A stretch of 64,000 nucleotides of DNA, taken from positions 1,997,225 to 2,061,224 of the forward strand of contig NW_004797304.1 in assembly GCF_000002075.1 (NCBI RefSeq), read 5' to 3'. The notes under the pieces were generated by a model. The model was not told where the DNA came from, did not search any database, and saw only the letters and a list, made by a program, of their open reading frames with translations. A program made the position numbers and the translations under genes. This DNA is from Aplysia californica. Lineage: Eukaryota. Position 1 is the stretch's first letter. Every line of letters starts with the position of its first letter. This document shows, piece after piece, positions 46,819 through 62,477 of this stretch.

Positions 46819-49800
46819 ACACACACACACACACACCAGCTGCGTACAAGTCAACAAGAGTTACAAAGTCCTGAATGTGATAAGAAGCATTTATACACCA
46901 TGCACGGTATTTATGGACATTTCCAAGAGCATGTGACGTAAACAGCTGTCAGTCAATCTTGACATGCACAGAAAACATTTGCTTTATCTCAAGGACTTTG
47001 CTTACAGGATTAGTCTTGTCTGACAAACCACAAGCCAGGGTCAAGGGTAACACAGAAGTATTGTTTTCAGAGAAAGAATTTGCTTCCAGTGATTTGCGAA
47101 AGACGGGGGGGTCTGGGAAGGGAGGATGGCAGCTTAGACTCACTGTAAACAAGCTGGAGCCAGCCATCTACATTTACACGTTCCAACATACAAAATGTTC
47201 CCTTAGTACTTACCACTTTTACAGGAAAGTCCATCCCAGTACGATCTACTTATAGGACCACACAGACATTTTTTAACAGAGTTCTTGTTTGCAACACACG
47301 CTAGTCCAGATCGACAAGGATCTGTGAGGCCAGCACAGTCTACTCCGTGAGCCAGTTCTAAAGAAGACAAGGAGAAAAAACAACCGGATACAACAACAAG
47401 GACACAAACAAAACACTGATTTCACAGAAATCTCATCATAAATATTTTCTACATACATTCTCACAAAGCAATGATTTCATTATACCAGCATCCCATCACT
47501 TTTTTAACACTGTGCCGTCACATCTCGCCGTTCGGCGATGTATACCATCCACTTTCTTTGGATTTTCCCCACAATGCCTTTGCATTTGATGGCAAGGGTT
47601 TTTACTAAGGCAAAGTGTTAAGGATACAGAAAAGATTGTCACATCAAGATCGAACATCTCTTGTCGTCCCCACAACCAGCGAGGATAGACACAATAGAAA
47701 AACGCTTCGAAACTGGCAGAGACATGGAACTGTTATACTCTAAAAAGATGATGAATTGTTCTTACAGAGAATCCTCAACACTGATGTCAGGCTCAGTCTT
47801 CAGATTTAAAACCAACCGAAACAACATTCCTCCCAGCCTGTCTCATCCAGTTTCATTCCTTTAAGTATTCCCAACTTTAACGACTTTTTGAGTCTCATTT
47901 CTCGTCCTATATCATTCCTTAAAGTGTTTCCAGCCTACATCACTCTCTGAGTCTCAATTCTCGTCCCACGCCTTCTTTCTATGATGAAAACCTGTGAGCG
48001 GTTTTGTCCTACCTAGCTGTGTGGCACAGAACAAACTCCTCATAAAACACGATAAGGCTATCTTAGAGGCAGGACCTTCAACTTCACGCTAATCGCTGAA
48101 GGGATCTCACCAGACAGAAGAAAAGACATGAAGACTTTCAAAACACCTCAGTCTCACCACGTGACTACAGCGACCCGGACTAAGGCCATTTTTATCACAC
48201 ACCAAACGGGAAATCAGGCTTACTCGCTCACCTCTTTAGCCTTAACAGCACAAAGTCTGCTTCGACATTCAAGGCACTTTGGAAATAGCAGTTTACAAGA
48301 GAGTGACAAACATACAAAAGAAGTAGAGGAAAATGACGATCGTAAGGATGAGGAAAGAAAAAGCAGCAGTTCCCCCTATGTTGTTCTGGCAAAGTATATA
48401 AGCGTGGCAATGATAAATCAGCCAATTTAAAATTCTACTGTGCTTAACAACATGTTAATATACCCCCTTTGACTTACGGAATGGTCTAAAGACACTTCAG
48501 TCTGTAGCACTGCCCTAGGGGGGAGGGGGGGAAGGCCATCTGTATCACACACCAGCGTACAGGTGTTCAGGGAATACGATACACTTTGTGGGGTTTTAAT
48601 AAGTAAAGAAAACAGAAGCTCTATCCTCTCCGTTCTTTGATGTGTTTAAATCAGTTCTCCGAGACCTCTCCCTTTCTCTTTAGGCCCTCAGCTTTTCGTT
48701 GGAAATCTTTAAAAGCAAGATCAAGAACATTTATTGTTTCTGAAAACACGCTCCAACAGTAGCATGTTCTTCATGTTTATTGTATTGGCTGGGTTGTGCA
48801 CAACATGGAACTCATTACGTAGACTGTGGGAAAGGTGAACCCTTCCACAGAGCATCAAAAGTAAAAACAACATTTAATTCTTTGTCCCCGACTGTAAGCA
48901 CGCACCAAGACTCACCCAACTCTCCGTGGTATCCAGCAACGGTCAGACCTAGTGGACATTGACAAATGACAGCAAAGATTTCCTTCTACAGGTGGGTGAC
49001 AGACTTAAGACACAGAACTACGAGTCCTTTCAAAGGTAGAGAGTGGCTATTGCTTAGACGTTTTGGGTACGTGTAGCACTGGAGCATAATTTAAACTGTG
49101 TCGATGAGTCAGCAAAATCCAATATTAATTATATGAACCTTTGACCTAGTTGTACTATTTTTAAAAATCCCCTAGCAGGCTGAACTAGGTCACTACGATC
49201 AGAAAAAAGAACAGATCACAACAGAAAGAATAGATATCAGTACATCAAGTTCAGAACCTGCAAGTCAGCAATGTATTTCACGTACCTGTGTAAAGAAAAG
49301 TGTCATGAATGCCGAACATTTCTTACAACATCGCCGCCTTCATCAAGTCCCAACGGACCACGGAGAGACAAAATGAACCAACCAAATGGGAAATAAAACT
49401 AGAACAAACATCACAGTAACATACAAAAAGTTTCTAACAGCAGTTTGTACATTCAATGATAATGATGTAAACAAACTGTCAACAACTTCCTCACACATGT
49501 TAAAGGACAACTTCCTCTCTCTCCGTCCTACTTACTTCGGGCACACTGGTTATTGCCAGTATGGTAGTCCGTGCTCAAACACTTGCACTTGGAGTTTAAA
49601 CAACGAAGCTGTCCATCACATGGGTTATCTGACACAGATGGACACTGTCCATCATAGCCGATTTCTGGAGGAAAACAAAAGAGGGACAATAAACATACTT
49701 GACAGTTCTGTTAATCTGACACAAAGATTGACCAATCACATTCTTTTGAGGATATAATATTTATTGTGTTAATTCTTTTATATGTCAGTATGGGTTTCCC

Positions 49801-62477: not shown

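Follow-up and report, generated by a model that had tools for sequence, protein, structure and literature searches.

Our analysis points, with a probability of roughly two in three (about 0.65 for the reading as a whole), to a diversifying birth and death of exons at the tip of predicted pseudophosphatase receptors of the R3 type, which would act as decoys or modulators beside an intact gene. One such gene lies on the minus strand of the window, i.e. the whole stretch of 64,000 nucleotides from Aplysia californica analysed here. According to this reading, tandem duplication of module exons, by unequal crossing-over and gene conversion, would build the receptor tip; the modules would mostly be included in order, with occasional skipping, and selection favouring new binding surfaces would make them diversify. 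The dead phosphatase would retain its fold and a tail with tyrosine motifs and would compete or pair with the intact receptor, and the tip would change under the pressure of a fast-changing ligand (parasites, microbes or non-self cells). Taken alone, the immune or non-self role stays below even odds; passages of PMC5336234 associate R3 receptors chiefly with development and the wiring of nerves rather than with immunity, which counts against it. An earlier note on this DNA had described the exon array itself. What is new here is its place in a predicted pseudophosphatase receptor of an expanded family, with modules that are probably under diversifying selection.

The module exons and their receptor gene

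Positions 44000-64000 were read and scanned for splice-bounded open frames. Nine module exons were found on the minus strand between 47214 and 62477, in the order A-A-C-C-B-A-C-B-D. Each is 129-144 nt long and a multiple of 3, starts with AA directly after an ag acceptor, ends at a gtaagt donor, has phase 1-1 and encodes six cysteines. Read along the minus strand, they are A1 (62343-62477), A2 (59524-59658, 95% nucleotide identity to A1), C1 (57364-57504), C2 (56579-56719, 100% identical to C1 and likely the same exon), B1 (55644-55772, 100% identical to B2 and 98% to a module of the paralogue at locus C30), A3 (52875-53009, a splice-bounded six-cysteine frame), C3 (50362-50499) and B2 (49536-49664), which are spliced to each other in sequencing run X8, and D (47214-47357), the membrane-nearest module, which is present in five family loci. 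As a control, the combined splice and cysteine scan gave nine matches on the minus strand of 47001-64000, whereas the plus strand of the same interval, the minus strand of 1-45000 and 100 two-letter-block shuffles yielded no match. The span, lengths, splice ends, phase and order given in the earlier note were thus all reproduced, as was its remark that the exons are frame-neutral. Intron blocks ending in gtgagt (e.g. 48915-49095) were tried as further exons and rejected because of stops in the frames tried by eye and the lack of X8 cover.

The array had also been thought to continue past the window end. One further intact module exon, A0 (L001:1286-1152), does lie there; upstream of it the assembly holds remnants, one module exon with broken splice sites and then the signal-peptide exon, about 25 kb beyond the window end, and N runs in between could conceal more exons.

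Each A exon of the window is followed by a 40-nt minisatellite that consists of the last bases of the exon plus its 5' splice site. On the minus strand at 52302-52884 it runs to 14.6 copies and repeats the 5' splice site of A3; further arrays lie at 59311-59533 (5.6 copies) and 62171-62352 (4.6 copies). The same repeat was seen at about L001:960-1160 and as single copies in the paralogues at C273. As many as about 15 donor-like sites thereby stand in tandem; splicing from a later one would lead to a frame shift or a stop, and repeat number could tune the inclusion of A exons.

Chained from A1, the window gene comprises 32 GT-AG exons and remains open over 1472 codons. The modules precede an FN3 stalk, as expected from the earlier proposal that they form a receptor tip. 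The stalk is encoded on the minus strand by nine exons with about five FN3 domains (33631-46204: 46204-45899, 43755-43480, 42153-41984, 39265-39064, 37653-37468, 36374-36240, 35428-35280, 34874-34779 and 33697-33631). It is followed on the same strand by four exons for a juxtamembrane domain of the PTP_tm type, which contains a basic RRKR site (29063-32695), an exon with a single transmembrane segment (28012-28135) and nine cytoplasmic exons with one PTP domain (12921-26406). Four single-exon frames match fn3 at E 1e-4, below the cut-off; the whole paralogue P0003 reaches 80.7 bits for fn3, and the juxtamembrane family PF18861 passes its cut-off on the same protein. A single PTP domain is indicated by the window frame, which stops after it, and by the paralogues P0005 and P0006 with one Y_phosphatase stretch each. 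By its predicted domain order the window gene is an intact R3-type (PTP10D/PTPRJ-like) receptor with an extra N-terminal module array. Its ectodomain is not composed of FN3 only, as nine or ten cysteine modules stand before the FN3 repeats. The protein of the window gene itself was absent among the matches of the homologue searches. A broken LINE-type element with reverse-transcriptase and RNase H-like frames (by eye) lies in an intron at 16942-14975 (minus strand), and another RNase H-like fragment was seen at 20854-20327. Intronic minisatellites at 44072-44327 (47/32-nt units) and about 42390-42770 (33-nt-like unit) are shared with paralogues.

The six cysteines are invariant in all 16 aligned modules. 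Five of seven single module exons match Pfam EB (PF01683) at 13.6-16.2 bits (A1 at 16.2), below the gathering cut-off of 24.3 and over profile positions 17-52 or less, whereas whole molluscan homologues exceed this cut-off with 26.9-62.8 bits. None of the seven matches Pfam EGF. A module profile matched Notch EGF repeats weakly (E 0.001-0.5, positions 5-36 of 46). The B module was modelled with a pLDDT of 88.6 and short beta hairpins; no significant fold match was obtained with it (the lowest E was 1.0, and the highest Z 2.7, at rmsd 1.1 over 28 aligned residues). From sequence the modules are best called EB/EGF-like, the name they had been given before, and no finer assignment is supported.

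One part of the array is probably an artefact. The 685 bases left of the 100-N run at 57236-57335 are repeated to its right with 99.4% identity and four mismatches (56551-57235 and 57336-58020), so that the direct duplicate (56551-58020) abuts both edges of the run; other duplicated blocks in the array are 87-97% alike. Judged by geometry and identity alone, the C-C pair is probably an unmerged assembly overlap, or two haplotypes, with one exon assembled twice. The true order in the window is then likely A-A-C-B-A-C-B-D, and the order with two adjacent C exons holds for the assembly as read. The alternative is a very recent true duplication of C; a fresh duplication would also break the assembly. 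Edge-to-edge overlap was found at one of 36 100-N runs examined and at none of 71 random positions, a rarity that weighs against the overlap reading of the C-C pair. The expectation that overlaps commonly flank such runs was consequently dropped, and the overlap artefact is not a general fault of the assembly. It is very improbable that array and family size are largely artefact, with haplotypes or overlaps placed in tandem. Such a scenario could draw on the C-C pair, on the many N runs in every locus and on paralogues in which pairs of identical exons stand close to gaps. It is opposed by the single overlap among the 36 runs, by the other duplicated blocks, which differ by 3-13% with indels against 0.6% for the C-C pair, and by the paralogue proteins, which differ from each other by 10-40%.

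The phosphatase domain and its family in Aplysia

The KNRY (phosphotyrosine) loop and the Q-loop are motifs of PTP domains. The KNRY motif of the window gene is replaced by a shorter unrelated stretch when compared to the intact paralogue P0006 (exons 23265-23205 and 21744-21674, minus strand). The exon at 14610-14459 carries the WTD loop and HC, and the P-loop exon at 13877-13733 carries SAGVGHT, with His for Arg (both minus strand). The P-loop thus reads C-S-A-G-V-G-H across the intron 14459/13877 and does not conform to CX5R. The Cys, the general-acid Asp (WTD in the WPD loop) and the Q-loop are kept. The P-loop Arg is described in part of PMC4322731 as invariant and required for substrate binding; as it is His here, loss of activity is predicted, and we regard the domain as a putative pseudophosphatase. 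With Cys, WxD Asp and Q-loop in place, residual or altered activity would be possible. The His motif was also considered as the mark of a D2 domain and rejected, since the gene has a single PTP domain. The last coding stretch (13075-12921, minus strand) is a tail with YxN motifs. Further downstream, the stretch at 11072-11134 (minus strand) matches the final exon of the intact paralogue, whose tail ends in TVL, presumably a PDZ-type ending; it is out of frame in the exon chain and likely a remnant, and the window copy has likely lost the TVL tail.

Genome searches gave at least six first-FN3 exons, at least seven proximal exons and at least nine P-loop exons. Eight of the nine P-loop exons carry His; the remaining one, with Arg and KNRY, belongs to the gene at C154, annotated as tyrosine-protein phosphatase 10D. 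In a tree of 18 rows and 92 columns the eight His P-loops form one clade (support 100/99) beside the intact gene, other branches being weak, and the homologues from other snails retain Arg. Among 158 homologous proteins, 38 have a readable P-loop: Arg in 35, His in two (both from Aplysia californica) and Pro in one. Since homologues from gastropods and bivalves have related arrays of 0-10 modules, the module architecture is old; the His-bearing expansion is recent.

The dead PTP exons evolve at omega 0.19-0.39 (2dlnL 10-16; one-ratio codon models with two frequency models, used here on stretches of 42-98 codons from sequences that recombine and with kappa approximate under the null), which argues that the domain is retained for some function. 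One such function could be enzymatic: the His-bearing PTP would be an active enzyme with changed substrate, and the copies specialised signalling receptors instead of decoys. The retained Cys, WTD Asp and Q-loop would agree with this, as would a His that is fixed in 8/8 copies under purifying selection; one copy is auto-named PTPRQ-like, and PTPRQ acts on phosphoinositides. We consider it distinctly unlikely. The change in PTPRQ, as given in passages of PMC5336234, is from WPD to WPE and not a loss of the P-loop Arg, and the Aplysia copies have lost KNRY too.

Family loci differ in their module content, with 12 module matches at C154, 11 at C273:630-680k, 10 plus one dead at C34, six at C30, five at C273:485-525k, four each at C273:1-40k and C1109, and three at C273:385-425k. 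Module orders also differ between loci, and several modules have stops or broken splice sites. The copy-number variation suggested by the earlier note is hence present among paralogues (3-12 module matches per gene), a comparison between genes and not between individuals. At C34:1989500 (plus strand), about 8 kb before the window, lies a partial copy, tail-to-tail with the window gene and limited to the last two PTP exons; within 100 kb no other exons accompany these two, and no module array was found in the 100 kb upstream of this copy, nor in C154:85-155k. The copies at C273:564805 (plus) and 580769 (minus) are likewise tail-to-tail. At C1109 neither D nor first-FN3 exons were found within the stretch read; the protein model of this His copy, P0005, likewise lacks both and has an extra cysteine-rich insert between FN3 stalk and juxtamembrane domain. 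Some family loci are thus incomplete, and as the assembly is gapped, they may represent pseudogenes or copies from haplotypes.

Duplication, selection and splicing of the modules

Self-comparison of the window shows that the duplicated blocks consist of intron plus exon: an A-C-B unit occurs twice, at a distance of about 6-7 kb, and tandem A units are spaced by about 2.8 kb. B and C exons have 71-74% nucleotide identity, and the similarity extends into flanking introns (49526-49929 vs 50352-50762, 73%), which bears out the earlier view of B and C as older duplicates; A and D are separate classes. The array grew by tandem duplication of class 1-1 module exons, a general route for extracellular domains according to parts of PMC3927616, and unequal crossing-over would be the mechanism. 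Exchange is also visible between genes. Between the intact gene and one of the His copies at C273 there is a 3.1-kb tract of 97% identity followed by 1.5 kb of 96%, against 82-93% in other blocks, and one module is 100% identical between the two; a tract of the C30 paralogue covering B reaches 95-99% against 74-93% around it. From such tracts we infer gene conversion between paralogues.

Codon models of the same kind were applied to the ectodomain. The A-class modules (nine exons, 44 codons, one stop-bearing exon excluded) gave omega 2.16/2.47 for the two frequency models, with 2dlnL 8.7/12.3 against omega=1, and 1.98-2.50 after removal of A0 or of the C1109 exons. This excess alone survives correction for the seven regions; FN2 (1.71/1.70, 2dlnL about 5) fails it. 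The B/C class (15 exons, identical B1 and C1 excluded) gave 1.44/1.51 (overall range 1.4-1.6), not significant against 1; FN1 (0.87/0.81) shows no difference from 1 either, and D is at 0.57/0.71. Relaxed constraint would equally give the values for B/C, FN1 and D. The five membrane-proximal exons gave 0.58/0.57. Moreover, A0 and A1 differ at 37 of 135 exon sites but only at 13 of 164 sites of the neighbouring intron (p=9e-6), and none of the six cysteines is lost.

These values bear on the scenario of neutral repeat turnover, in which the modules form a spacer stalk that changes by unequal crossing-over under little sequence selection in a decaying family. It can account for the incomplete loci and the module exons that have died, for omega near 1 in B/C and FN1, for the identity of B1 and B2, and for the high intron similarity, which favours unequal exchange. 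We nevertheless regard it as improbable: the six cysteines are invariant in 16/16 modules while A-class omega exceeds 2, the A0 exon is far more diverged than its intron, the window gene is open over its 32 exons and transcribed, and purifying selection acts on the dead PTP domain. Diversifying exon birth and death remains the preferred reading.

Read contigs were aligned over 46850-52280 in four of 24 runs; none of the 24 is recorded as RNA, and run X8 was taken as RNA solely from its GT-AG joint. This joint, 49664/50362, occurs in two contigs and connects C3 to B2 in order; it is the only module joint among the 15 of 125 joints listed (with 32 of 47,661 pieces listed). There are also X8 contigs confined to the exons D, B and C, and one contig spans D exactly and continues on both sides. 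The exons are therefore spliced, and C joins B in order. In a Dscam-type mutually exclusive cluster one exon of the cluster enters each transcript; the joining of neighbouring C and B exons in X8 is not of this kind. That run X2 does not cover D and B carries no weight. In run X11, a contig over exon B has two changes from Asp to Asn (49617 and 49653) that are absent from the reference copies, and depth over B is 193 vs 25-36 nearby; this hints at more or other B copies, depth being no measure of copy number.

The earlier note had raised combinatorial splicing, in which cells would choose subsets of module exons and make many tips per gene, as something that the symmetric phase could support. 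Our data do not show it. Phase 1-1 is a general property of shuffled extracellular modules, as stated in parts of PMC3927616, and is shared by the FN3 exons of the window gene, so that it is ordinary by itself and no evidence of alternative splicing. The scenario as such does have indications in its favour besides the frame-neutral exons. In an annotated homologue from Haliotis asinina, isoform X8 lacks exactly one 44-aa module compared to isoform X3, and the annotated C30 model uses four of six genomic modules; both are gene models and not read counts. An annotated isoform of Haliotis rufescens, likewise a model, has a tail without PTP domain. A stop-bearing module inside the C273:630-680k array would need skipping, and tandem copies of the 5' splice site follow each A exon. 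Two contig starts in run X8 may be read in the same light, on the assumption that contigs break at branches of 31-letter words. The contig on C begins 58 letters upstream of the exon and agrees with C3, as it does not have the 3 nt inserted in C1/C2; this start would fit a join of A2 to C3, as A1 and A2 diverge there. It could reflect skipping, but an allele that carries a deletion or has been converted would explain the A2/C3 pattern equally well. The contig on D begins 28 letters upstream, which would fit B as its single predecessor, and this speaks against a choice of subsets. With the only listed module joint in order and a consensus gtaagt donor on all nine exons, we consider combinatorial splicing unlikely, though less so than the other competing scenarios, and expect modules that are mostly included in order.

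Comparison with known receptor systems

The Aplysia family resembles the R3 receptor phosphatases (Drosophila PTP10D, C. elegans DEP-1, vertebrate PTPRJ/PTPRH/PTPRQ) in having a single membrane pass, FN3 repeats, a long juxtamembrane region, one PTP domain and a YxN tail, as these are characterized in passages of PMC5336234. It differs from them by the six-cysteine array, by the His P-loop and KNRY loss in 8/9 copies, and by its size of at least nine loci. The same source derives R3 from a single protostome precursor that expanded only in flies; its text contains no mention of molluscs. Receptor phosphatases with the same EB/FN3 domain set and 0-10 cysteine modules are found in Physella, Bulinus, Elysia, Babylonia, Haliotis, Lottia, Solemya and Tegillarca, all as automatic annotations. 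Those with a readable P-loop mostly have Arg, and the His clade was seen in Aplysia californica only. Abalone annotations include isoforms without one module or without the PTP domain. Homologues or isoforms from abalone, Elysia and Babylonia (P0007/P0159, P0016 and P0019) have a like ectodomain and no PTP domain in the model, two of them with tyrosine-rich tails, which suggests either that gastropods have lost catalysis repeatedly or that the models are incomplete. Our literature search, which covered sources other than subscription journals, found no published study of an Aplysia or molluscan EB/FN3 receptor phosphatase family. The Aplysia immunome paper (PMC9334734) does not mention it in its passages on phosphatases, EGF, PTC and fibronectin; its supplementary gene lists may include the loci.

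Phase 1 flanks with a proneness to duplication, loss and skipping are shared with class 1-1 shuffled modules and with sponge Aggregation Factors (PMC3927616 and PMC5400394, in part). Class 1-1 shuffling as presented in these passages is a generic mechanism and does not alone imply splicing diversity. Vertebrate paired receptors such as CEACAM1/CEACAM3 offer another parallel, since according to PMC5112662 they have similar ectodomains under gene conversion and diversifying selection and an unequal cytoplasmic capacity. The Aplysia proteins are not of the Ig family, however, and the split is between active and dead phosphatase, not between ITIM and ITAM as in that pair; the Aplysia side of the parallel is drawn from sequence alone. 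The closest gastropod case are the SudRes1 receptor phosphatases of Biomphalaria sudanica, a paralogue cluster with repeated Cys-rich modules. Passages of PMC12297450 and PMC13712769 report structural variation, loss of EGF domains between genomes and a link to parasite resistance for these genes. The SudRes1 proteins combine MEGF plus a GBD (galactose-binding domain) with tandem PTPs (PMC12297450, in part), unlike the EB-like modules, FN3 repeats and single, mostly dead PTP in Aplysia, and no orthology is claimed.

A paired-receptor system of gastropods could also be envisaged, in which one catalytically intact R3 receptor and at least eight dead copies exchange module exons (by recombination between genes and alleles, and perhaps by splicing), so that tips for pathogens or non-self would be specific to the individual and the dead copies would serve as decoys or dominant-negative partners. 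We put this forward tentatively, as a doubtful extension of the preferred reading. In Biomphalaria snails, parasite resistance is linked to clusters of receptor phosphatases whose cysteine-rich tips vary, and Aplysia presents a different subtype with the same variability plus a split into active and dead copies. As this family resides in a laboratory model animal, it provides a defined test of decoy or paired receptors and of module shuffling in molluscs.
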